Both the position numbers and the translations under genes were made by a program. A stretch of 54,655 nucleotides of DNA, taken from the sequence record MH706966; one strand, 5' to 3'. The notes beneath the pieces are model-generated. The model was not told the DNA's origin. It did not search any database and was given only the letters and a program-made list of their open reading frames with translations. Shown here one piece after another: positions 2,418 to 20,073 of the stretch; within the stretch, counting starts at the first letter, position 1, and every line of letters starts with the position of its first letter. Origin of the DNA: Enterobacteria phage mEp021.

Positions 2418-2849
2418 TTATTGCCCCCAGCGTTTTATAAATTCCTCGTTCAACTTAGTGTCACCAGACCATTGAACATTATGTTCAGCGCCGAACGAGT
2501 AGATCAGTTCGATTAGTTCGCTAAATTCTGCTTTACTCATCCGGCTGGTTGACGTACCCAGCACAACAAAACCTGATTTATCCAGGTTAGGGACAACGCC
2601 ATATTTCTTAAGTCCGGCAGTAAATACCGCCTTCCAGTCTTCCGGCGACAGCTTTTTTCCGTACCAATTAACCTGATCGCTAATGTCGGTTAACAGCGCC
2701 CATAAAAGGCTATTTTGACTAAGCGAGCGGGTTTTCTCCTGGATGGTAATTATCAGCGGGCTTTTGCTATCAGACTGGATCTCTCTTATCTGCCTGATAG
2801 CGTTTTCTTTTACGGCGTCGTTTACTATTTCAAATCTAATTTGCCTCAT
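2418..2849 (-). CDS. ninB: NinB-like recombination protein
   Basis: 143 aa; resemblance to the lambda NinB (Orf) family as recalled; sits in a nin-like context next to a methyltransferase. Confidence 0.65.
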   Translation of the reverse strand: MRQIRFEIVNDAVKENAIRQIREIQSDSKSPLIITIQEKTRSLSQNSLLWALLTDISDQVNWYGKKLSPEDWKAVFTAGLKKYGVVPNLDKSGFVVLGTSTSRMSKAEFSELIELIYSFGAEHNVQWSGDTKLNEEFIKRWGQ

Positions 2850-3573
2850 GGTTAGATAACGCCTCGTTTATTCTATTTGATGCAATTTCGAAATATTTTT
2901 CATCCTTTTCTATGCCGATAAAACGTCGGTTAGTATTAATGCAGGCAACGCCTGTAGTTCCGCTGCCCATAGTAAAATCGAGAACCGTTTCCCCTTCGTT
3001 AGTGTATGTCTTAATTAGGTATTCCATCAGTGCGACAGGCTTTTGTGTTGGGTGTACCTTGCCTTTCTGGTTTGCGTTACTTATCTCTATAATGCTTTTA
3101 GGGTGCTTATCCTTATAAGTCCTTAAATCACCATAATTAATTATGCGGTTTGCCTCCCCAGCAGAATATGTTTTACCCGTCCTTTCCTTTTGCGGAGTTT
3201 TTATTGGGTAATATTTGACAGCGCCTTTAGAAAAAACAACAACATCCTCATGCACCCTATAAGGTTGCCATTTGAGGACTTGCATGTTACCGCCTTTCTT
3301 CTTGTCCCATACCCAGCAATATTTAAACATGCTTATGTTGCTTGCAATTAGTGTTGTAGTGAACGGCTGACTTGCAGTCATCACAATGGCGCAATTCGGC
3401 TTAACTATGCGCTTTAATTGCTCCCACATTGGATTAAGAGGAATGACGGAATCCCATTTGCAGGCCGTTGTGCCGTAAGGCGGATCAGCCATTACCATAT
3501 CAACGCTACCGCCTGGGATAGAGTTCATGACCTCCAGACAATCACCCAACAATAATGTAACATCTTTATTCAT
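2836..3573 (-). CDS. DNA methyltransferase, N6-adenine or N4-cytosine type
   Basis: 245 aa; DPPY catalytic motif (MADPPYGT) near the N-terminus and AdoMet motif FTMGSGTTGVA near the C-terminus (motif IV before motif I). Confidence 0.75.
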   Translation of the reverse strand: MNKDVTLLLGDCLEVMNSIPGGSVDMVMADPPYGTTACKWDSVIPLNPMWEQLKRIVKPNCAIVMTASQPFTTTLIASNISMFKYCWVWDKKKGGNMQVLKWQPYRVHEDVVVFSKGAVKYYPIKTPQKERTGKTYSAGEANRIINYGDLRTYKDKHPKSIIEISNANQKGKVHPTQKPVALMEYLIKTYTNEGETVLDFTMGSGTTGVACINTNRRFIGIEKDEKYFEIASNRINEALSNHEAN

Positions 3574-3582
3574 TATGTTGCC

Positions 3583-3780
3583 TCATGATACACCGTTACT
3601 ATTTTTCCACTGTGACCGCGCATACATGATCGCCCACAGAGAAATAAGCCTTGAGCTAGACATATAATCGTTTTTGAGTTTTTTCATATCAATAATAACA
3701 GGACTATCAGGATCGTCACCTCGCATGTATTCCGCAATCGTGCTCAAGTCTTCCACGGTCAAATCTAATTCCCTATTCAT
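3583..3780 (-). CDS. Hypothetical protein (65 aa)
   Basis: ORF in a tightly packed leftward operon. Confidence 0.35.
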   Translation of the reverse strand: MNRELDLTVEDLSTIAEYMRGDDPDSPVIIDMKKLKNDYMSSSRLISLWAIMYARSQWKNSNGVS

Positions 3781-3789
3781 GGTCGCCCC

Positions 3790-3996
3790 TTACACAATCC
3801 GCATTGTGTTTCGTAATTCACCGCGCAACGCCTGCAAAGCGTAATGAATCGGCACAAAAGCACGGTTAAATTTTACGTGCTTATACTTGCGCATTAGTGG
3901 CGGCGTATAAACCATCGTGCCGCAAGGATCGCATGTGAATTTAAAGTGAGATTCGTCAATAAACGTTTCAACTGAATAAAAAATTACCCGTCTCAT
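3790..3996 (-). CDS. Hypothetical protein (68 aa)
   Basis: ORF in a tightly packed leftward operon; overlaps the upstream gene by 4 nt. Confidence 0.35.
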   Translation of the reverse strand: MRRVIFYSVETFIDESHFKFTCDPCGTMVYTPPLMRKYKHVKFNRAFVPIHYALQALRGELRNTMRIV

Positions 3997-4586
3997 AATT
4001 CCAACCCCGTTTCCACGTTGAGTTTTTCAATCTCAAATACTGGTTTATCAGGAAGCAGCCCGTTATTTTTACGGTATTCGTTCAGGCGGCTGTCAAAGTC
4101 AAACGCCAAATCATTAGCGTGACCGAATCGCCCAGGTTTAAACAGTGAGTAAAAGTTAACCCCGTGCCTATTTGGATCAACGCAAAGCGTTTCATCAATC
4201 ACCATTAGGCGAAGAGTACGAGAAAGATAATTCCACGGGATACCAGTCTCCGCACTAATGTCACGCATACGCTTTTTAACGCTGTAGTCACCAAATAACG
4301 ACGCAACACGCTCACGACGTTCAGCATATAACTGTTTAATACGATAGCCCAGCAGACGGCGGCGGCGTCCAAAACATGTATATACGCGCTCGACGATACC
4401 GTTTTTTATTAAGTGTTTAATTGTCTCAGGAAGTAACCCATCTTTATCATATCCAGCTAATAACCCCGTTTTATTGCGCAACTGGTGCATTGTTGCGATG
4501 CCATCAAGTTCAAGGATATTGATAACTTTTGTTTCAAGTTCAGCGCTCATTGTTTTTAGCCTCGTTTTAAACGCGATAACAGCCAC
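3993..4586 (-). CDS. Hypothetical protein (197 aa) downstream of the helicase
   Basis: Long ORF; no Walker motif seen, so not called as a helicase loader. Confidence 0.5.
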   Translation of the reverse strand: MAVIAFKTRLKTMSAELETKVINILELDGIATMHQLRNKTGLLAGYDKDGLLPETIKHLIKNGIVERVYTCFGRRRRLLGYRIKQLYAERRERVASLFGDYSVKKRMRDISAETGIPWNYLSRTLRLMVIDETLCVDPNRHGVNFYSLFKPGRFGHANDLAFDFDSRLNEYRKNNGLLPDKPVFEIEKLNVETGLEL

Positions 4587-4629
4587 CAGAAAGCGGTAAA
4601 CTTTCCGGTAAGCCGTTTGCTCATATTGA

Positions 4630-6045
4630 TTAAAAAGATGCGTTATTCTGGTTGTTTCGTTGGTTAAATCTGCCTGTGCGGTGATTCATAGACTGAATAC
4701 ACGCAGCAGCCGCGCGTGCCTGGTCGCATGGTAAAATGTTGCCGTTATCATCAAACCGCTGGTAAACAGTGCCAGATTTACCATGACGGTTTTTCGATAC
4801 AATGATTTCCATATATTCGCGGGCTACAGACTGCTCATCGTAATATCCATCGCGGTAAACCATGATGATCCTGTCAGCATCTTGTTCAAGGTTCCCGGAA
4901 TCGCGCAGATCTGAATTGTTAGGACGCTTGTTCGGTCGCTCCTCAACGCGGCGTGACAACTGCGCCAGCGCTAACACTGGAACGCGCAATTCTTTTGCCA
5001 TCATCTTCAACGACCATGACAATTGCCCAACAGCGAGATCATGACGTTCAGCCTTAGCCAGCTTCATCAACCCGATGTAGTCAATCATTACCATACCCAG
5101 GTTAGGATGTTCCTGTTTCATCCGTTCCGTGGTGGCGCGTATTTCCTCAACCGTTAACTGCGACGCGTCAACGATCCACACATCAAGATTAGCAAGTGCG
5201 CTCATACCCTTGCCGACATGCGCCCACCCCTCATCATCAAGTTTTACCGGATTACGCAGGCAGTCTGTTGATAAATTACCAGCGCCAGCTATAGCGCGTT
5301 CAGTCATCTGATCGAGTGACATTTCAAGCGTGAAGAACAAAACGCCAACCCGCTGATCTTTACTGCCAGGGTAAGGGCGCTCAGCGGCAGCGCGGGCAAT
5401 TGTCAGCGCCAACGCAGATTTACCAGACCCAGGGCGTCCAGCTAAAAGCACCAAATCAGTAGCGTTAATGCCTCCCAACATCTCATCGAGTGGATCTATC
5501 CCTGTTTTGATGTTGTCAGAATTAACACCGCATTCCATGCGCTTGCTTAAAACGTCCGTATATTCCTGTACCGCATCACGCAACAGAACAGGAATGATCT
5601 TATCTTTCGTTACCTTTAATTTTGAATACCGGGAATCAAAATCTTTCATCGTCTCTTTGACGACCTCAAGCGTCCCCGTCTCCAGTTTGTAGCGCATATC
5701 GTCGATGAGTTCCAACATCTGCCGCCGCTGGTGCTCTTCACGTAGTAGCTGTGCGTATCCCTTCAGGTTGGCAGCAGACGGGCACGATCTCGCCGTTTGC
5801 ATTAGCGGTACAAAGTTTTCGTTGCCAATCTCATCGCCAACCAATAACGCGTCAATAAGATTCCTGTTTCTGGCTTGCGCCCTGATAATTTCAAACGCAC
5901 GTTTATACAGCGGAATCGTGAACACTTCAGGATCAAGAGTGGCGAGAACATCTTGCGCGTTAGGAGTAAGGCCGCCCAACAGCAGCCCACCGATAACTGA
6001 CGCCTCACGTTCCTGCCGTAGTGAGTTTATTTGCTCAGTTACCAT
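4630..6045 (-). CDS. dnaB: Replicative DNA helicase, DnaB family
   Basis: 471 aa; Walker A GRPGSGKSALALTIA; DnaB-like N-terminal domain and overall pattern. Confidence 0.85.
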   Translation of the reverse strand: MVTEQINSLRQEREASVIGGLLLGGLTPNAQDVLATLDPEVFTIPLYKRAFEIIRAQARNRNLIDALLVGDEIGNENFVPLMQTARSCPSAANLKGYAQLLREEHQRRQMLELIDDMRYKLETGTLEVVKETMKDFDSRYSKLKVTKDKIIPVLLRDAVQEYTDVLSKRMECGVNSDNIKTGIDPLDEMLGGINATDLVLLAGRPGSGKSALALTIARAAAERPYPGSKDQRVGVLFFTLEMSLDQMTERAIAGAGNLSTDCLRNPVKLDDEGWAHVGKGMSALANLDVWIVDASQLTVEEIRATTERMKQEHPNLGMVMIDYIGLMKLAKAERHDLAVGQLSWSLKMMAKELRVPVLALAQLSRRVEERPNKRPNNSDLRDSGNLEQDADRIIMVYRDGYYDEQSVAREYMEIIVSKNRHGKSGTVYQRFDDNGNILPCDQARAAAACIQSMNHRTGRFNQRNNQNNASF

Positions 6046-6079
6046 TATGTTATTACCTCCGGTTTACAAAATGGAAAAT

Positions 6080-6586
6080 TCAGGGTAAAGAAATACCGTG
6101 ATTGCTATGAAAGTTATACATTCTTTCAGCTTCTTTTCTTGCTTTTACGGCATCATCAAATGAGTCACCGTAATAAACGTACATTGTTTTCTTTTTCCCA
6201 TCAGACCCCCTTATACCTATTTGCGCCCGCCATTTATGGGTTTTCTTGTTCCACGTAACGCCAACGCATCCGCTAGTATTACTTGATGGCATTGTTTTGT
6301 TTCTGTTATTCTCCTTCCTTGTCACTATCCTTAAGTTTTCGATTCTATCGTCACCAGGTACATGATTTATGTGATCTATTTCCATTCCATCAGGAATAGG
6401 GCCGTTAAACATTTCCCAGATAATGCGGTGACGCCATGTGCAACAAATACCATTAACGCGTATAGTCCAATATCCGCGATAATGTTTACATCCAGCCACG
6501 CTACCTGCTTTTATTTTGTTATTTGCACGGTTACAAGACCAATATAGAACGCCGTCGCTATATGTAAATAAATCATCCCACATCAT
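6080..6586 (-). CDS. HNH homing endonuclease with AP2-like domain
   Basis: EIDHINHVPGDDRIENLRIVTRKENNRNK HNH motif; start taken at the internal ATGATG (6586) that overlaps the stop of the upstream gene; paralog of 45958-46524. Confidence 0.65.
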   Translation of the reverse strand: MMWDDLFTYSDGVLYWSCNRANNKIKAGSVAGCKHYRGYWTIRVNGICCTWRHRIIWEMFNGPIPDGMEIDHINHVPGDDRIENLRIVTRKENNRNKTMPSSNTSGCVGVTWNKKTHKWRAQIGIRGSDGKKKTMYVYYGDSFDDAVKARKEAERMYNFHSNHGISLP

Positions 6587-7703
6587 GACACCCAACCATT
6601 TCAGGCCTATATACAAAGCGACCAATTTCGCCATAATCAGGGCTGTAAATGATAACCGCCGCGCAACGTTGCGATCTCCAGCCTCCATTAGTTGAATAAG
6701 CGTCTTTTCCCGCTAACGTGCCGTGGTGTTCAACTATGCCTATAGATGATTCTGTTACTGATTTATGGTGCAAATGTCCGACATGGACGTAAACATATTT
6801 CGACTTGCCAAAATCCTCACGCCAGTCAGCTACGCAAGCAGACAATAAATTTTCAGGCTTTTTGATAGTGTGCCCGTGGTGGTAAGCAAGGAATGTTTTT
6901 CCGTACTGTGTGTGGTGGACGATGGCAGGGGACACATCAACCGTCACGCGCGGTTCATCTTCGTAAAAAGCCGCCAGCGCCGCACGTAGCCAGATCATTC
7001 CTGACTGGTCGTGATTGCCGGATAACACCTGGATTTCAACATCCTTATGATTTAATAACATCTTCCCTACCGCCCGCCGGACAGACCGGATCGCTACATA
7101 AACAAGTTTTGCGTAGCGACTATCTTGATCAAGAATGTGCCCGCTTGTTGGTGTCACCGGGACCATACCGTCAGAATGAAGTAGATCGCCACCGAGGAGC
7201 AGTACTGCTTTTTCAGACATAGGAGCAGCGCCAACCGCGTAGTCAAAGAAGTCATTCAACACGCGCTCAGCGATCCCAGTATCGTAGCTCTCACCGCATT
7301 CAGCTTTATGAGCAAGTGCCCCGATATGCAGGTCAAACACCGGATAAAGAGCCAGGCTTTTTTGAAAATCAATTTCCGGCACTGGCACTGCCTCCGCGCG
7401 TGGTATTTCTTCCGTGAATGCGTCGCGGGCGGCTTCCATTAGCCTTTCCATTTCATCGCGATCACGGGCTGTTTTAATCCAGCGCATGACCGTATTACCA
7501 GCCTTATCGACAAGAACAGATTCACCAGTAACGCCAAAACCCGGTGCGCGGCGCGTTGATAATAAACCGCGTTTCGCCAGCTTTGCGCCAAGCCGCTCGA
7601 CGTTGCGTTTTGACATGCCATATTTTTCGGCGATCTGTTTATACGTTAAACCGTTGTTATATTCAGCGATCAATTGCTCATCGCTTATCTTTCTTTGCGA
7701 CAT
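6573..7703 (-). CDS. HTH domain fused to calcineurin-like metallophosphoesterase (Mre11/SbcD or lambda-PPase-like)
   Basis: 376 aa; N-terminal LTYKQIAEKYGMSKRNVERL HTH; phosphoesterase motifs LLGGDLLHSDG, LSGNHDQ, HHGH, HVGHLHH. Confidence 0.6.
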   Translation of the reverse strand: MSQRKISDEQLIAEYNNGLTYKQIAEKYGMSKRNVERLGAKLAKRGLLSTRRAPGFGVTGESVLVDKAGNTVMRWIKTARDRDEMERLMEAARDAFTEEIPRAEAVPVPEIDFQKSLALYPVFDLHIGALAHKAECGESYDTGIAERVLNDFFDYAVGAAPMSEKAVLLLGGDLLHSDGMVPVTPTSGHILDQDSRYAKLVYVAIRSVRRAVGKMLLNHKDVEIQVLSGNHDQSGMIWLRAALAAFYEDEPRVTVDVSPAIVHHTQYGKTFLAYHHGHTIKKPENLLSACVADWREDFGKSKYVYVHVGHLHHKSVTESSIGIVEHHGTLAGKDAYSTNGGWRSQRCAAVIIYSPDYGEIGRFVYRPEMVGCHDVG

Positions 7704-7736
7704 AATGTTACTTCCTCATGTTTACGTTTTGTATAT

Positions 7737-9224
7737 TCATTGGCAGAAAACAATCTCTTTAAATGCTTTTTCTACCATGTCGAATACTTCCGGCCTGTAA
7801 TAGAAAAACTCATTGCTTCCATCAAATTTCACAGGAAAATTGATTTTATAATTACTAAAAGCCTTATGCATCGTGTTTTCTAGTTTATGTATACTTTCGG
7901 TTGGCCCTTCTAACGTTTTCACGACACACAAATCAGGGATTCTAACACCTGCTTTATGTGCGCTTTTTAATATCCGATTTCTTCGCTCGTTCTCCTTAAC
8001 ACTTACGCCGATTTTCATTTGTGTAGGTAATTCCAGATCATCAACCATGATGTAAAGTTTGCCATAATCATAACGAAAGAAACCGTATTTAGCGCATTTT
8101 TGGCAACCCCTACCGCGCTTAAGTTCTCTAGGTCTAACCGACCACTTATGATTACAAACCTTACAGCGGCATGATACTTTTTTATTTACGTTCGTTATTT
8201 CTCCCAGCACTTCAACATCAGGATTAACCTTAGCAATAGCTAAAACATGTTCTTCGTGCGTTATAATCTTCCCAGCACATTTTGGGCAACCCTTCCCGCG
8301 TTTAAGGTTGCTAGGAGTAACCGACCACTTATGATTACAAACCTTACAGCGGCATGATACTTTTTTATCTACGTTCGTTATTTCTCCCAGCACTTCAACA
8401 TCAGGATTAACCTTAGCAATAGCTAAAACATGTTCTTCGTGCGTTATAATCTTCCCAGCACATTTTGGGCAACCCTTACCGCGCTTAAGGTGGTTAGGTC
8501 TAACTGACCATTCATGATCACAAACCTTGCAGCGGCATAATACTTTTTTGTCGCCACCTGTAATTTCACCCAGCACTTCAACATCAGGATTAACCTTCGC
8601 AATGGCAGCAATTTGTTTATAATGTGATAGTCTTAGTTTTTGTGCAATTTTCACACATTTACATTTCGGGCAACCGCTCCCGTGTTTAAGGGCGTCAGGC
8701 GTAGCCGACCATACACGATCACAAATCTTGCAGCGGCATAATACTTTTGTTCTGCTATTAACAATTTTCCCCAGCACTTCAACATCAGGATTAATTCTTG
8801 AGATGGCGGCGATCTGTTCTTCGTGTGATAATCTTTTTGGCCCTTGCTTTAACATTGCGCATTTCGGGCAACCATTCCCGCGTTTAAGGTTGCTAGGAGT
8901 AACCGACCACTCATGATCACAAACCTTGCAGCGGCATAATACTTTTGTGCTGTTATTTATTATTTCCCCCAACACTTCAACATCAGGATTAATTTTAGCA
9001 ATAGCCGCAATTTGTTCTTCGTGGGATAGCCTTGCGTTCCCAGCGCATTTTGGGCAACCTTTACCGTGTTTAAGGTTGCTAGGAGTAACCGACCATTCAT
9101 GATCACAAACCTTGCAGCGGCATAATACTTTTTCCCGGCTTCCAGTAATTTCTCCCATCACTTCAACATCAGGATTAACTTTCGCAATAGCTGCAACCTG
9201 TTCTTCGTGTGTTAGCTTGCACAT
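7737..9224 (-). CDS. Protein with six tandem Zn-ribbon modules and a C-terminal GIY-YIG-like (T5orf172-type) domain
   Basis: 495 aa; six ~55-aa repeats HEEQVAAIAKVNPDVEVLGEI...C.C..C.H.W...P..L..G.GCPKC; C-terminal GKLYIMVDD...KIGVS...RRNRIL pattern; repeats 5 and 6 are near-identical at DNA level. Confidence 0.55.
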   Translation of the reverse strand: MCKLTHEEQVAAIAKVNPDVEVMGEITGSREKVLCRCKVCDHEWSVTPSNLKHGKGCPKCAGNARLSHEEQIAAIAKINPDVEVLGEIINNSTKVLCRCKVCDHEWSVTPSNLKRGNGCPKCAMLKQGPKRLSHEEQIAAISRINPDVEVLGKIVNSRTKVLCRCKICDRVWSATPDALKHGSGCPKCKCVKIAQKLRLSHYKQIAAIAKVNPDVEVLGEITGGDKKVLCRCKVCDHEWSVRPNHLKRGKGCPKCAGKIITHEEHVLAIAKVNPDVEVLGEITNVDKKVSCRCKVCNHKWSVTPSNLKRGKGCPKCAGKIITHEEHVLAIAKVNPDVEVLGEITNVNKKVSCRCKVCNHKWSVRPRELKRGRGCQKCAKYGFFRYDYGKLYIMVDDLELPTQMKIGVSVKENERRNRILKSAHKAGVRIPDLCVVKTLEGPTESIHKLENTMHKAFSNYKINFPVKFDGSNEFFYYRPEVFDMVEKAFKEIVFCQ

Positions 9225-9600: not shown

Positions 9601-10608
9601 TCAAATAGCGCCTGCGCGTGTATCGCGTAGCGTTTTTGGTTTAAGCAGGAAATCAAGTGTCGCAGTGAAGCCATTGCCGAAGTAAAAGTCTGAAGCCGTG
9701 TTTTTAAACGCCTCAAAGTAAGCAATAAAGCCAGTGATGCTTTTGTCTTTCAGGTAGTCAGTGAACGCATAGATCTTGCGTTCAAGATCCCGATCCAGTT
9801 CAGCAGGTGGCAACAGGCCATCAAACGTGCTGTTAAATGCTTCCACTACGTCGGCAGCGTTTGCAGTGACTGACAGTTTGCTCCATTGTTCAGCATCAGC
9901 CAGATACCCATCGAATTTAGTTACCCGGCAAATGTTAACAGGCTTAGGCACTCCACCACGGCCACGCCATTGCGTTAAAGCCCACTCAATCACTAATGTG
10001 ATCTCACCCTCCGTATACGCTTTGCGTGTTTTTGTTTCTGTCAGTAGTTCTACGAATGGCTTTGCATCACGACATTTGCATCCTGCCTTGTCGTTGTAGA
10101 AGGACAGGCAACGCAATGCCGCCAGATTAACCTCCCGATCTTCTTCGCTGATAGACTCGTCTTTTTCCAATACACGAAGTGTATTGTTTTTAATGTTCTC
10201 TTTACTGGTTATATATGACTGATTAGGGTTGCTCTCTGCCACTACCCCCGGTTGCTTTGTGCCACTACCCTGGTTGCTCTCTGCCACTACCCCCGGTTGC
10301 TTTGTGCCACTACCTGACAGTGAAGGTAAAACGATTACATAGAAATTGCTCGTTTGTTCTTTCCCTCCTATTAAATATCGAGGCTGTTTTAGTAATAAAC
10401 CTTTTTTGCAAAGAGCCTCGATTGCTCTCATTGCCGTACTTTTGTTTATTTCGCATTGCTTTGCTATGTGCTGGTAAGAAGGGTAGCACTCTCCGTTATC
10501 GTTAGCGTTATCAGCCAACTTTAACAGCACAAGTTTGTGCATTGGGTTGCCGACTTCAGTATGAAAGACTTCAACCATTAGCCGCATACTCATAAGCATT
10601 AACCTCAT
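9601..10608 (-). CDS. Replication initiator, phage O-like
   Basis: N-terminal winged-HTH pattern KLVLLKLADNANDNGECYPSYQHIAKQCEINKSTAMRAIEALCKKGLL; iterons embedded in the coding sequence; true start probably the internal ATG at 10593 with a gaggt SD. Confidence 0.7.
   Translation of the reverse strand: MRLMLMSMRLMVEVFHTEVGNPMHKLVLLKLADNANDNGECYPSYQHIAKQCEINKSTAMRAIEALCKKGLLLKQPRYLIGGKEQTSNFYVIVLPSLSGSGTKQPGVVAESNQGSGTKQPGVVAESNPNQSYITSKENIKNNTLRVLEKDESISEEDREVNLAALRCLSFYNDKAGCKCRDAKPFVELLTETKTRKAYTEGEITLVIEWALTQWRGRGGVPKPVNICRVTKFDGYLADAEQWSKLSVTANAADVVEAFNSTFDGLLPPAELDRDLERKIYAFTDYLKDKSITGFIAYFEAFKNTASDFYFGNGFTATLDFLLKPKTLRDTRAGAI
10227..10314. repeat. Four tandem ~22-bp iterons (ggttgctYtSTgccactaccc), candidate replication origin
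   Basis: Direct repeats at 10227-10249, 10250-10271, 10272-10294, 10295-10314, inside the O-like gene (encoding SGTKQPGVVAESN twice). Confidence 0.6.
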
Positions 10609-12638: not shown

Positions 12639-12761
12639 ATGGTTATCGAGGCGCTCAAATTCAAACTTGCGGTAGCGGAAATGCTTCATGATGCCGAAAT
12701 GTGGAGCGCCGCGAATAAAGCCTTATACGTAGTGTTAACAGCGAAGGAGATCAAAGAGTGA
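12639..12761 (+). CDS. Hypothetical small protein (40 aa)
   Basis: Strong SD ggaggtga; stop overlaps the erf start. Confidence 0.35.
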   Translation: MVIEALKFKLAVAEMLHDAEMWSAANKALYVVLTAKEIKE

Positions 12762-13399
12762 AAACAGAGTTACACAAAAAGCTGTGGACGATTCAACAAA
12801 CGTTGAATGCGCCGAAAAATCAGCGTAATAATTTCGGTGGGTACAATTACAGGTCGGCGGAGGATATTTTAGAGGCGGTTAAGCCACTGCTTCAAAATAT
12901 CACGCTGACTGTTAGCGATGAAATCGTCCTGATCGGCAATCGCTATTATGTGAAGGCCACAGCTACGCTAAGCGACGGTGAAGATGAAATTGCGGTAACT
13001 GCTTACGCCAGGGAAGAAGAAAGCAAGAAGGGAATGGACGCAAGCCAGTTAACTGGCGCGACATCAAGTTATGCGCGGAAATACGCGTTGAACGGATTGT
13101 TCTGTATTGATGATGCGCGAGATCCTGATACTGACGCATACGCGAAGCAGACTGGCCAGCAGCCTCGCCAGCAGAAAAACACACCAAAACAACAACCACA
13201 GCAGCAGAAAGCGCCGCCAAATCCTGACGAGGTGTTAGCGCGTTTCTGTGATGCAGCAGCGAAAGCGCCTGACGCTAACAAGTTGCGCGAGATATTCGGG
13301 AAGTGCTGGAAGCTACTTCCTAAAGATTCAGAACAGCAACAGAAAGCTAAAGACGTTTATGATATTCGCTTAAAAGAGCTTAACGGGGAGATCGGTTAA
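12758..13399 (+). CDS. erf: Erf-family single-strand annealing protein
   Basis: 213 aa; N-terminus LNAPKNQRNNFGGYNYRSAEDILEAVKPLL resembles P22 Erf as recalled; GTG start with SD gaaggaga. Confidence 0.75.
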   Translation: MKTELHKKLWTIQQTLNAPKNQRNNFGGYNYRSAEDILEAVKPLLQNITLTVSDEIVLIGNRYYVKATATLSDGEDEIAVTAYAREEESKKGMDASQLTGATSSYARKYALNGLFCIDDARDPDTDAYAKQTGQQPRQQKNTPKQQPQQQKAPPNPDEVLARFCDAAAKAPDANKLREIFGKCWKLLPKDSEQQQKAKDVYDIRLKELNGEIG

Positions 13400-13809
13400 T
13401 GAGCTTAAATTCAATTACGCTTGGCGGTAACGTTGGGAATGATTGCGAAACGAGATTTACATCAAACGGGAAAGCAATCGGTAGTTTCTCACTTGCTGTA
13501 CAACAAGGTTACGGTGATAACAAACGTGCAATGTGGGTAACGTGTTTAATATTAGGTGATAGAGCAACAAAATTAGCCGAACATATTAGGAAGGGGGATC
13601 ACCTGGTTGTAAGTGGTCGGTTGGATGTTAGGGATTGGGAAGGGCAGGACGGAAGAAAAAACAAATCAGTTGAGGTTATCGTGTCAGATATTGAATTTAT
13701 GAGCGGAAATAAACGCAGCGACCAAAACCAAAACAGACAACGCGAACAGCAACAACAATATAACCAGGATAACGGCGGGCAGGACTGCGACCAAGATATC
13801 CCATTTTAG
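13399..13809 (+). CDS. ssb: Single-stranded DNA-binding protein
   Basis: 136 aa; OB-fold pattern, glutamine-rich linker and C-terminal acidic tail ending DIPF. Confidence 0.85.
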   Translation: MSLNSITLGGNVGNDCETRFTSNGKAIGSFSLAVQQGYGDNKRAMWVTCLILGDRATKLAEHIRKGDHLVVSGRLDVRDWEGQDGRKNKSVEVIVSDIEFMSGNKRSDQNQNRQREQQQQYNQDNGGQDCDQDIPF

Positions 13810-13838
13810 CGAATATAATCAATTAGTTAGGTGTTATT

Positions 13839-14363
13839 ATGAGTAATGCCGAACCATTGAAAATATGTTGTACTTGCGGGGCACTATTGCCCCTTTCTTG
13901 TTTTCATAACGATAAGGGCAAGAAAGACGGCAAATCATGTAGATGTAAAGAGTGCGCCAAAAAAGCCACTAGAGAATGGAGTGAAGCGAATAAAGAAAGA
14001 AAAAAGAAAAATGATAGCGAATACGCAAAAACAGATAAAGCCAAAAAGAAAAGGGAAGAATACAGAAAATCGCAAAGAGGTAAAGAGATCGCGGCTGAAT
14101 CAAGAAAAAAATGGAATGAGAAAAACCCTAAAAAATACCACGCCCAAGTGATGGCACATAACGCTATCCGCGACGGCAAATTAATTAAACAACCTTGCGA
14201 AGTATGCGGCAGAGATGACCGCGTACACGCGCACCATTGCGATTATGATAAGCCGCTCGATGTTATGTGGCTTTGCCCGATATGCCATCGAGAGTGGCAC
14301 AACGAACACGGTGAAGGAGCTAATGCACACGACGAGGTATTAAGTGGTGAGCGAATATCTTAA
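13839..14363 (+). CDS. Zinc-binding protein with HNH-like C-terminal motif and lysine-rich centre
   Basis: 174 aa; CCTCG...C.C.EC then HAHHCDYDKPLDVMWLCPICHREWH. Confidence 0.5.
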   Translation: MSNAEPLKICCTCGALLPLSCFHNDKGKKDGKSCRCKECAKKATREWSEANKERKKKNDSEYAKTDKAKKKREEYRKSQRGKEIAAESRKKWNEKNPKKYHAQVMAHNAIRDGKLIKQPCEVCGRDDRVHAHHCDYDKPLDVMWLCPICHREWHNEHGEGANAHDEVLSGERIS

Positions 14364-17804: not shown

Positions 17805-18344
17805 ATGAAAAATGATTTTGGAGGCAGCCACACTCCTAAGGAAATTAAAGATCTATGGCAGACGCCTAAACCAGTTTTCAGAGGAATGGACCGCGAATTT
17901 GAATTTGTCGCTGACGTGGCGGCAAACAAGGAAAATGCGCTAGTTCCTCGGTATATAACCGAAGAAATGGACACGTTGCATTATCCGTGGGGAGCTGTGG
18001 CAATGCCTGGTGAGTATGTCTGGCTTAATCCGCCATATTCTAAACCGGGGCCATTCGTTGAGAAGGCGGCATTAGAACATCAACGAAATCACATTGGCTG
18101 TGTAATGCTGTTGCCCGCTGACATTTCTGTTAGCTGGTTTATGAACGGCGTGGATACGGCAAACGAATGCCGATTAATCACGCGCGGGCGGCTGGCGTTT
18201 ATCAATGCTGCGACTGGTAAGCCAGTAAGCGGAAACAATAAAGGGAGCTTGTTTTTGATCTGGCATCCACGGTGCAGACATGAATGTATTTTTACACACA
18301 TAACACGTAAAGAGCTATACGCAAGAGGTGCAGATAATGACTAG
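17805..18344 (+). CDS. dam: Phage-type DNA N6-adenine methyltransferase (Dam-like)
   Basis: 179 aa; WQTPKPVF...DVAANKENALVPRYIT...WLNPPYS pattern of the phage Dam family; SD aaggggg. Confidence 0.75.
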   Translation: MKNDFGGSHTPKEIKDLWQTPKPVFRGMDREFEFVADVAANKENALVPRYITEEMDTLHYPWGAVAMPGEYVWLNPPYSKPGPFVEKAALEHQRNHIGCVMLLPADISVSWFMNGVDTANECRLITRGRLAFINAATGKPVSGNNKGSLFLIWHPRCRHECIFTHITRKELYARGADND

Positions 18345-18834
18345 TGCAGCAGATTTACTACGAATCGCAGCGGAAACAATTGAGCAAAGAGGTAAACAAA
18401 ACGGCTACGACAGAAAAGAGGAAAAATCAGCGCCAAAAATAGCCACTATATACAACGCTAAGAAGGGCGCAAATTTAACCCCACTTGATGTATGGGATCT
18501 GATGATTTGTCTTAAGGAGGCGCGTTTAGAGGCTATTTTGGTTAATGGCAGCGATCCCACTGACACTTTGGTTGACCTAATCAGCTACAGCGCACTAAAA
18601 GCTGAGCAAATATTGAATGATCTGGATGAAGAGTTAAAGAAAAATCAGTTCACTGCCGCCAATATTAATGATGGAATAATAAATGACGCAGCAATAACAA
18701 GCTGTAAGGGATTGCCGCCTTCAATGCTTAAACCTCAGTGTGGCTGTATTTCAAATCGGCTTGATTTGAGTTTTGACAGATCTGAAGCTATTCGCGACAA
18801 GAGGTATGACCCAAATGAAAAAGGTGACAATTGA
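18337..18834 (+). CDS. Hypothetical protein (about 165 aa)
   Basis: ORF with SD aagagg; no motif recognised. Confidence 0.45.
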   Translation: MTSAADLLRIAAETIEQRGKQNGYDRKEEKSAPKIATIYNAKKGANLTPLDVWDLMICLKEARLEAILVNGSDPTDTLVDLISYSALKAEQILNDLDEELKKNQFTAANINDGIINDAAITSCKGLPPSMLKPQCGCISNRLDLSFDRSEAIRDKRYDPNEKGDN

Positions 18835-19318
18835 CAGGTTATTGGCCTGCGTTTATGTCGCCGTTTTCGTGATCATCAACCTAATTGTTAACCATTGCGG
18901 CCCGTGGGTGATTCCTATCACTACGGTAGCCGCTGTGTGTGTCAATATGATGATCCGCGACTTCCTGTTATATGACGGCGGTATCAAGTGGTCGGCGACA
19001 ACATGCGCCGCCGCTGGCGCAATCACTGTGCTGATAAATTACGACGCCGGAATGGTAGCGATCGCGTCATTTGTTGCGGTTGTTTCCGGTGCACTTATTT
19101 CTGGCGGCGTTTACCGGGTTTTACCTGGTGACTTTGATTCAAAACGATGGCCTGCAAATATAGCGTCAGCAATAGGCGATGCGTTGATTTTCCCTACGCT
19201 ATCGTTTATGGCATTCATGCCGGAAATATCAGCAATGCAATTCATATCCAAAATGGCGGCGGTAACGGTGATCACTATCATCATGCGCCGCTATTTTACG
19301 TTTGAGGGTAGAAAATGA
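18806..19318 (+). CDS. Multi-pass membrane protein (possibly VUT/YhhQ-like transporter; start uncertain)
   Basis: Four or five hydrophobic segments; loose resemblance to YhhQ-type proteins from memory only. Confidence 0.4.
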   Translation: MTQMKKVTIDRLLACVYVAVFVIINLIVNHCGPWVIPITTVAAVCVNMMIRDFLLYDGGIKWSATTCAAAGAITVLINYDAGMVAIASFVAVVSGALISGGVYRVLPGDFDSKRWPANIASAIGDALIFPTLSFMAFMPEISAMQFISKMAAVTVITIIMRRYFTFEGRK

Positions 19319-20073
19319 GCAGGGGTAAACATTGGTTTAATAATTGGCTTAGAAATTGGGTCGTTTGGTCGTTGTACGACGGCAGCGGGTACGCCGTCAA
19401 AGATTGGGCGGAAGCAGGATATAAGTGCTATTGCTTCAACTATGACGGCGCAAATCACGGCGATTATGAAGGCGTTAAAATCATTCATCCAAATATTGAA
19501 TACGTTAACGTATGGATTGACAGTCACTTCCTGGTGATGTTCTCGCCTGAACTGTCAGTTTACCCAGATCCTGATATTATCCTGGGCTTCCCGCCGTGCG
19601 ACGATCTCGCCGTGTCTGGCGCTCGCTGGTTCGCTGATAAACGGAAAAAAGATCCTGACTTCCAGGTGAAGGCGGCGAATAGCGCAAAACTGGTAGAAAA
19701 ACTGGCGGATATGCACAACGTGCCGTGGATGGTGGAAAATCCGGTGGGAGCACTGTCAACGCTATGGCGCAAACCTGATTTTATTTTCAACCCTTGCGCT
19801 TACGGTGGCTACCTGCCGGAAGACGACAAACATCCTGCTTTCCCTGATGTTTACCCTGCGCGCGACGCGTATACAAAGAAAACTTGCATATGGTGCGGCA
19901 ACGGATTCAAACAGCCGCTTTTTAGACCTGTAGATCTTAACTCTGGCGATAACCCTGGGTGGGCGAAAACAGGAGGCAGGACGAAACGAACAAAGATGAT
20001 ACGCTCACTAACTCCGCGCGGCTTTGCCCGTGCTGTATTCATGGCTAACCATGACCGCGTTTTACCGGACTGA
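19315..20073 (+). CDS. Small DNA C5-cytosine methyltransferase-like protein
   Basis: 252 aa; LYDGSGY (motif I-like), GFPPCDDLAVSG (PC motif, with PCD rather than PCQ), MVENPVG (ENV motif). Confidence 0.45.
   Translation: MSRGKHWFNNWLRNWVVWSLYDGSGYAVKDWAEAGYKCYCFNYDGANHGDYEGVKIIHPNIEYVNVWIDSHFLVMFSPELSVYPDPDIILGFPPCDDLAVSGARWFADKRKKDPDFQVKAANSAKLVEKLADMHNVPWMVENPVGALSTLWRKPDFIFNPCAYGGYLPEDDKHPAFPDVYPARDAYTKKTCIWCGNGFKQPLFRPVDLNSGDNPGWAKTGGRTKRTKMIRSLTPRGFARAVFMANHDRVLPD

Follow-up and report, generated by a model that had tools for sequence, protein, structure and literature searches.

The 54,655-nt sequence of Enterobacteria phage mEp021 (record MH706966; hereafter, the window) carries, between the genes for a replication initiator and a replicative helicase, a gene for a 376-amino-acid (aa) protein that joins an N-terminal helix-turn-helix (HTH) to a metallophosphoesterase (MPE) core. 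As judged from profile searches, this protein, here called MPE, is an ordinary member of PHROG 704, a known, catalogued, very common and experimentally uncharacterised phage family. Comparison with related phages identifies the gene as a resident, conserved component of the early replication operon, and both flanking nuclease genes as mobile cassettes of the homing-endonuclease type. We give about an even chance to the proposal that MPE cuts DNA as an exo- or endonuclease, tethered by its HTH and independent of Rad50, and that it handles replication or recombination intermediates in support of replication and concatemer formation.

The phrog_704 profile ("DNA repair exonuclease") matched residues 4 to 370 of MPE over profile positions 2 to 389 of 390 (E = 2.4e-144). 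A tblastn search placed family members in 2037 phage records out of 50,697, among them T1 (58% identity), Webervirus, Hanrivervirus, Jersey-, Kaguna- and Dhillon-like phages, and phages of Vibrio, Rhizobium and Campylobacter. The members from T1 and other Drexlerviridae and from the Jersey-, Kaguna- and Dhillon-like phages share with mEp021 the HTH-MPE architecture and all catalytic residues. Databases name the family in conflicting ways (as phosphoesterase, DNA repair exonuclease, oxidoreductase, Rrf2 regulator, DNA polymerase II small subunit, hypothetical), and "DNA repair exonuclease" is an annotation-level label. Under this name, the gene is persistent in 508 of 522 Drexlerviridae, where a gene for a polynucleotide kinase or a deoxynucleoside monophosphate (dNMP) kinase often comes next (2026 T1-like phage paper, PMC13164509). 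Literature searches on T1 host-DNA-degradation genes and on phage metallophosphoesterase function found no experimental work on PHROG 704, and the paper describing the mEp immI genomes does not discuss the gene.

The open reading frame (ORF) begins with ATG, and a GAGGA Shine-Dalgarno sequence lies 8 nt upstream. At the nucleotide level, it is 96.6% identical to gene 12 of Escherichia phage mEp515 and 85-93% identical to its counterparts in mEp010, mEp013, mEp044, mEp554 and MagusPhagus. The ratio of nonsynonymous to synonymous divergence (dN/dS) is 0.08-0.13 against mEp515, mEp013 and MagusPhagus, and an exhaustive HMMER scan with MPE retrieved 4645 clusters at 50% identity (E≤1e-3). The gene is therefore clearly functional. 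In comparison with mEp515, the first 55 codons (7539-7703) show a synonymous divergence of ~0.50 and zero amino-acid change, and the remainder a synonymous divergence of 0.066. This jump after codon 55 suggests a recombination or co-conversion boundary beside the variable upstream gene slot described below. The HTH region has no nonsynonymous changes against either mEp515 or mEp013, although its proportion of synonymous differences is 0.25-0.50.

The first-pass annotation of this DNA had described a 376-aa fusion of an HTH and a phosphoesterase. Indeed, the ORF and all the motifs quoted there are present, and structure prediction bears out the fold. The AlphaFold2 model (mean predicted local distance difference test score [pLDDT], 92) shows a three-helix HTH (helices at residues 8-16, 21-28 and 32-44), a linker of lower confidence (aa 45-55; pLDDT 69-78 across residues 41-60), a hairpin plus helix (56-97) and the MPE sandwich (117-370). 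It contains no further domain: the core beta-strands are followed by a short helix at residue 374, and there is no C-terminal capping domain. With the mEp021 protein as the query, Pfam HTH matches were weak (E of about 1e-3, below cut-offs), and Metallophos gave no match at E≤0.1 and did not reach the gathering threshold. When 51 family members were scanned one by one, HTH models matched 23 (best, Sigma70_r4_2 with 1.5e-9 and GerE with 2.4e-8) and Metallophos matched 18. Thus, the HTH is solid despite the weak matches of MPE itself, because relatives match HTH models and the AlphaFold2 model has the three helices.

The core contains all five motifs of the PF00149 superfamily (DxH, GD, GNH(D/E), H and GHxH) with all metal ligands. 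Motif I (FDLHIG, D124-x-H126) had been absent from the first-pass list. It is followed by motif II (GDLLHSDG, 172-179; G172-D173-x-x-H176), motif III (GNHD, 229-232; N230-H231-D232), motif IV (HHGH, 275-278; H275/H276) and motif V (HVGHLHH, 307-313; G309-H310-x-H312). The loop VTPTSGHILDxDSR (aa 183-196), between motifs II and III, is family specific. In an alignment of the 51 members (31-74% identity), D124, H126, G128, E135, G172, D173, T184, R196, N230, H231, H276, G309 and H312 are invariant, and H176, H275 and H310 are nearly so. Therefore, the two-metal site is intact throughout the family, and a check for lost metal ligands found D124, H126, D173, N230, H231, H276, H310 and H312 all in place.

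According to the first-pass annotation, the chemistry of the protein, protein phosphatase or DNA phosphodiesterase, could not be told from the sequence. This holds in that DNA is still an inferred substrate, but motifs and structure favour one side of the superfamily. The top Foldseek matches of the model were the archaeal PolD small subunit DP1 (E = 5.6e-8) and Mre11 (E = 1e-7), Mre11/SbcD were among the closest structural neighbours, and the top 50 contained no PPP enzyme. Escherichia coli SbcD has the same motif pattern as MPE (DWHLG, GDVFD, GNHD, GHIH). The PPP signature (GDxHG, GDxVDRG, GNHE) was not found in MPE (FDLHIG, GGDLLHSDG, GNHD), nor was structural proximity to PPP catalytic domains. 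The lambda Ser/Thr phosphatase NinI, a PPP enzyme, shares the superfamily fold and the dinuclear metal site with MPE, but it carries GDLHG, GDLVDRG, GNHE and GHT, the last in place of GHxH. Since the Foldseek matches and the SbcD-like motif pattern agree and the PPP signature is lacking, we place MPE, by motifs and model, on the Mre11/SbcD/DP1 side of the superfamily.

MPE is not a member of the Mre11, SbcD or DP1 families themselves, because profile matches were insignificant, a capping or full OB domain is missing and no Rad50/SbcC-like gene was found. Comparison of hidden Markov models (HMMs) gave no significant match on either side: the family profile reached only E = 0.49-1.2 with Thermotoga SbcD/Mre11 in the PDB, and hhalign against single sequences, which did not discriminate, yielded probabilities of 2.2% for E. 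coli SbcD and 1.0% for lambda NinI. NCBIfam returned nothing informative and no SbcD or Mre11 match, and PDB sequence searches returned HTH matches only, plus insignificant SbcD/Mre11/MPE ones. Of the 21 mEp021 ORFs of at least 230 aa, most were scanned and given other functions (all but four of 236-314 aa and a 1727-aa virion-region ORF), and none is Rad50/SbcC-like; T4 gp46, with 560 aa, served as the size reference. MPE thus differs from Mre11, SbcD and T4 gp47 in having no capping domain and no Rad50/SbcC partner, and in carrying an N-terminal HTH instead. DP1, a 3'-5' proofreading exonuclease, is 11-13% identical to MPE; it has a full OB fold before the core, where the MPE model has only a beta-hairpin, and MPE has no DP2 polymerase partner. 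Furthermore, the T4-like phages of Campylobacter, taken together, have a canonical T4 gp47 homologue (F371) as well as a PHROG 704 member (the related CP30A; a different record). Therefore, the family is probably neither redundant with Mre11 nor a simple replacement for it.

The neighbours named in the first-pass annotation are those found here: an HNH_3 gene downstream, a Zn-ribbon protein gene upstream and, outside them, genes for an O-like initiator and a DnaB-type helicase (Table 1). Its view of the MPE gene as an insertion in the replication arm is not upheld. The genes of 12 mEp-like loci were re-called, with the upstream region included in 11. Ten of these 11 share one arrangement, with initiator, variable slot, MPE, DnaB and MarR-like gene in succession; MPE and DnaB stay together in the relatives, and the HNH and slot genes vary instead. 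DnaB is the conserved immediate downstream partner of MPE in related loci without the HNH cassette. For example, mEp013 has no HNH gene and its DnaB gene starts 18 nt after MPE; MagusPhagus lacks both flanking nucleases. Among the mEp-like phages compared, the HNH gene is found only in mEp021, mEp515 and mEp010; it is absent from mEp013, mEp044, mEp554, MagusPhagus and all 35 E. coli prophage copies.

Table 1 Features of the MPE locus of mEp021 (positions in the window)
Feature	Position	Strand	Evidence
HTH-metallophosphoesterase (MPE) gene, 376 aa, PHROG 704 member	6573..7703	-	ORF, phrog_704 match, dN/dS
N-terminal three-helix HTH, aa 1-47, sigma-70 region 4/LuxR-like, basic third helix	7563..7703	-	AlphaFold2 model, Pfam across family
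Connector between HTH and core: beta-hairpin, aa 56-80 (G69, W75 and K77 conserved), then helix, aa 82-97	7413..7538	-	AlphaFold2, conserved columns
Metallophosphoesterase core, aa 117-370	6594..7355	-	Motifs I-V
HNH_3 and AP2-like homing endonuclease ORF	6080..6688	-	HNH_3 E 2.9e-21, phrog_99 E 3e-60
25-nt remnant of ancestral MPE 3' end (…YPEFSIL*)	6064..6088	-	Unique exact match to mEp013/MagusPhagus MPE end
Variable-slot gene: six Zn-ribbon (DUF4379/CapR) repeats and C-terminal T5orf172/MUG113 nuclease-like domain, 495 aa	7737..9224	-	Pfam, PHROG
O-like replication initiator	9601..10608	-	HTH_36 E 1.1e-14, several replication-initiator PHROGs
DnaB-type replicative helicase	4630..6045	-	DnaB_C E 9.2e-76

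The HNH ORF overlaps the 3' end of the MPE gene, as its likely start lies near 6636, where it is annotated in mEp515. In the HNH-free phages and the 35 prophages, similarity to the mEp021 gene ends at position 1095-1104 of its 1131 nt. The ancestral 3' end has left a remnant, TTACCCTGAATTTTCCATTTTGTAA, which now lies downstream of the HNH ORF and provides its stop codon (0 matches expected by chance). The present MPE tail reads …RPEMVGCHDVG, of which RPEM resembles the T1-type C terminus. The junction was settled by exact-match search and protein C-terminal alignment; a MAFFT DNA alignment across the HNH insertion misplaced the flanks. A homing-endonuclease cassette whose flank was co-converted would leave behind such a remnant and such a replaced tail, and this rewriting of the 3' end sets the mEp021 gene apart from the PHROG 704 genes of phages such as T1. 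We thus regard the HNH ORF, on the comparison of these loci, as a mobile cassette and no part of MPE function. A homing endonuclease gene also lies directly downstream of the T1 MPE gene, and related HNH genes adjoin the MPE gene in 8 of 90 loci; the picture of a gene flanked by two nucleases is therefore incidental. Selfish endonucleases commonly settle beside conserved genes.

On the other side of the MPE gene, the domain matches of the mEp021 slot gene only just pass cut-offs. At positions 8091-9214, a 183-nt unit is repeated in tandem 5.9 times, and every unit specifies one treble-clef Zn-ribbon module of 61 aa. In relatives, the slot holds a 192- to 317-aa Zn-ribbon/T5orf172 protein, an unrelated 256- to 267-aa protein or a 51-aa ORF only. 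Since relatives carry shorter versions (annotated lengths, 247 aa in mEp515 and 178 aa in mEp013), the number of Zn-ribbon repeats may vary between phages.

In all loci examined across the family, the PHROG 704 gene belongs to an early module of DNA or nucleotide metabolism, but the replication machinery next to it differs greatly. In T1, it follows the genes for a helicase, VRR-NUC and Dam and precedes the lysis cassette, whereas in mEp021, a temperate mEp immI phage, it stands between initiator and DnaB. One PolA-type contig has it after endonuclease VII and before HAD_PNKP and a MazG-like gene; in another, it is near PolA and a primase-helicase. In a siphovirus-like contig, it comes after helicase, primase and a RecA-dependent nuclease and before Q. 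Two members with HTH-type Pfam matches are encoded on T4-like metagenomic contigs, within the cluster of T4-type replisome genes: one (3523-4674, 383 aa) has the gene for the clamp-loader subunit gp62 on one side and regA on the other, and the second (6001-7449, 482 aa) comes after a Dda-like helicase and before a MazG-like gene. In Campylobacter phage CP30A, the gene directly follows DNA ligase. MPE is followed by a HAD phosphatase gene in 25 of the 90 loci and by a gene for a dNMP-kinase-like P-loop protein in 16. In many lytic relatives, among them two loci with these genes at 5192-7361 and 6001-8200, MPE is succeeded by a phosphatase of the HAD/PNKP type and this in turn by either a MazG-like enzyme or a P-loop protein resembling dNMP kinases. 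The pairing of MPE and HAD in phages mirrors the bacterial Metis and PUA-Cal-HAD defence operons, whose MPE and HAD enzymes act on NAD+ and dADP (Metis and PUA-Cal-HAD papers); salvage, mimicry and counter-defence are candidate meanings.

The mEp021 sequence looks like a whole phage genome: its left end holds an integrase gene and its right end a tail fibre gene, and cI-type repressor, Erf, SSB, NinB, NinG, Q, terminase, portal and tape-measure genes lie in between. Its relatives mEp515, mEp010, mEp013, mEp044, mEp554 and MagusPhagus are temperate, Nus-dependent "mEp immI" coliphages (their genome paper). The MPE gene is carried by 35 of 5426 complete E. coli genomes, always as one chromosomal copy. 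Within the initiator gene, about four 23-nt direct repeats (GGTTGCTCTCTGCCACTACCCCC) at 10227-10314 encode a repeated SGSGTKQPGVVAESN peptide; they look like the iterons of a putative origin inside the initiator gene, as in lambda O. Genes for an Erf-like annealing protein, SSB and an EndoVII/HNH-like endonuclease follow each other at 12758-14363 (+). No dedicated recombination exonuclease of the lambda-Exo/RecE type was found beside Erf, and mEp021 may leave resection to a different nuclease, with MPE as one possibility, or to enzymes of the host. There are also three DNA methyltransferase genes, at 2836-3573 (-), 17805-18344 (+) and 19315-20073 (+) (phrog_67, phrog_111 and phrog_757).

A phage MPE among replication genes is also known from mycobacteriophages. 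Bxb1 gp47 and L5 gp54 (PHROG 221) are recombination directionality factors, and Bxb1 gp47 is reported to be needed for replication of the phage DNA (PMC11795197, citing Savinov 2012) and to have weak exonuclease activity (PMC11795197). The top structural neighbours of Bxb1 gp47, Mre11, PolD-DP1 and then LpxH, are the same as those of the mEp021 protein, but it has 255 aa and no HTH. Membership of MPE in the Bxb1 gp47 family was considered and rejected: hhalign against a 20-sequence gp47 alignment gave a probability of 2.5%, with only motifs III-V colinear. Bxb1 gp47 itself matches phrog_221 and 20266, neither 704 nor 284, and we regard it on these profile comparisons as an analogue of MPE rather than a family member. 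Its role as a serine-integrase cofactor has no counterpart in mEp021, because the mEp021 integrase matches tyrosine-integrase PHROG families and that of mEp515 is annotated as a tyrosine recombinase. In Bxb1 (5098-6788 of the locus), gp47 lies two genes upstream of gp45, a "sigma-K factor"-like protein (phrog_354). By analogy, gp47 and gp45 may be a separate-gene version of the MPE and sigma-like HTH fused in mEp021; this may also be a coincidence. A further mEp021 ORF at 18328-18834 (+) matches phrog_474, "phosphofructokinase", and the same unlikely label is borne by Bxb1 gp49 (6961-7515 of the locus), two genes from gp47.

In the proposed mechanism, MPE would be a two-metal phosphodiesterase that is capable of catalysis and structurally of the Mre11/SbcD/PolD-DP1 type, flexibly linked to a sigma-r4/LuxR-like HTH that most likely keeps the enzyme on DNA. 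With Mn2+ or Mg2+ as its metal, the MPE domain would cut DNA as an exo- or endonuclease, and would do so without Rad50/SbcC. It would probably act on intermediates of phage replication or recombination, such as ends, 3' tails, flaps or hairpins, and would work with phage Erf, SSB and DnaB toward replication and concatemer formation. The lead of nucleases over small phosphodiesterases among the structural matches is modest. It is for this reason that we infer, rather than assert, DNA as the substrate and with it a role in replication or recombination. Alternatively, MPE may be a phosphohydrolase of nucleotides or other small molecules (dNDP/dNTP, NAD+, Ap4A, or a cyclic or signalling nucleotide) that controls nucleotide pools or counters defence. 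We consider this distinctly unlikely, as the conserved, selected HTH fusion argues for a tether to nucleic acid (or protein), DNA nucleases are the top structural matches and several phage types have the gene in the midst of their replisome genes. In line with this, the PADLOC defence and counter-defence models gave no match to MPE other than Csa3 (E = 0.048), on the HTH region. A Ser/Thr/Tyr protein phosphatase like that of lambda, reprogramming host proteins, would fit the common superfamily fold and metal ligands, and lambda encodes such an enzyme, NinI, in its early region; given the motif and structural differences described above, it is highly improbable.

The neighbouring genes allow other readings. 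T1 is classically reported to degrade host DNA. The family could accordingly comprise nucleases that break down the host chromosome to dNMPs, which dNMP kinase, HAD phosphatase and MazG-like neighbours would channel into phage DNA. The HAD and dNMP-kinase-like genes counted above, the HAD_PNKP and MazG-like neighbours in metagenomic contigs and the interpretation of the downstream kinases as raising nucleotide supply in the KanT1 paper (PMC13164509) all speak for this. It is nevertheless unlikely, since mEp021 is a temperate phage (integrase, cI-type repressor) that carries the gene in its early replication operon, with no HAD or dNMP kinase gene adjacent. A host-DNA destroyer should prevent lysogeny there, because the early operon would be expressed before the decision between lysis and lysogeny. 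Furthermore, the escapers in the Metis and PUA-Cal-HAD papers are T-even denA mutants, with none in PHROG 704, and no escaper or genetic data there tie the family to host-DNA degradation. The HAD_PNKP-type phosphatase and "polynucleotide kinase" genes after MPE in many phages, and the ligase gene directly before it in CP30A, could also point to end healing, in which MPE would treat broken RNA or DNA, as a 2',3'-cyclic phosphodiesterase or a 3'-phosphatase, together with a PNK-type kinase/phosphatase and ligase, like the MPE domain of Clostridium thermocellum Pnkp. That domain and lambda phosphatase have activities of the end-healing type (PMC2190708). However, the phosphatase domain of Pnkp is lambda-phosphatase-like, whereas the signature is missing from MPE, which is also structurally remote from PPP enzymes, and no PNK, HAD or ligase gene adjoins MPE in mEp021, which makes such a role very unlikely. 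Finally, the position exactly between O-like initiator and DnaB in the mEp group, comparable to the map positions of lambda P and SPP1 G39P, raises the idea of a helicase loader or a non-catalytic adaptor between the two. We rejected it as barely credible, because the invariant catalytic residues indicate an enzyme and the family also occurs in T1, PolA/T7-type and T4-type phages with other replication machinery and no DnaB alongside. HMM searches of Pfam, PHROGs and NCBIfam revealed no match to the loader families (lambda P, DnaC/DnaI, SPP1 G39P and T4 gp59).

What had seemed an enigmatic, nuclease-flanked insertion thus turns out to be an ordinary conserved gene around which homing endonucleases have settled. 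PHROG 704 is one of the commoner phage genes without known function, present in about 4% of the phage records searched, and the Drexlerviridae, which keep it in their persistent core, number therapy candidates and T1, a laboratory contaminant, among their members. Its placement on the Mre11/DP1 side and its fixed partnership with replication genes in a genetically tractable temperate coliphage offer a clear experimental entry point. Going beyond the HTH-tethered nuclease proposed for mEp021, the whole family may form a distinct class of stand-alone phage replication nucleases, a tentative and rather doubtful extension. In this class, the HTH would replace the tether that Rad50 provides for Mre11, or OB and DP2 for DP1; the enzymes, on which ~4% of sequenced phages, lytic and temperate, would depend for replication or concatemer formation, would parallel Bxb1 gp47 in function with an independent origin. 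If this is true, PHROG 704 would be a new, widespread accessory part of phage replisomes that otherwise use the polymerase of the host.

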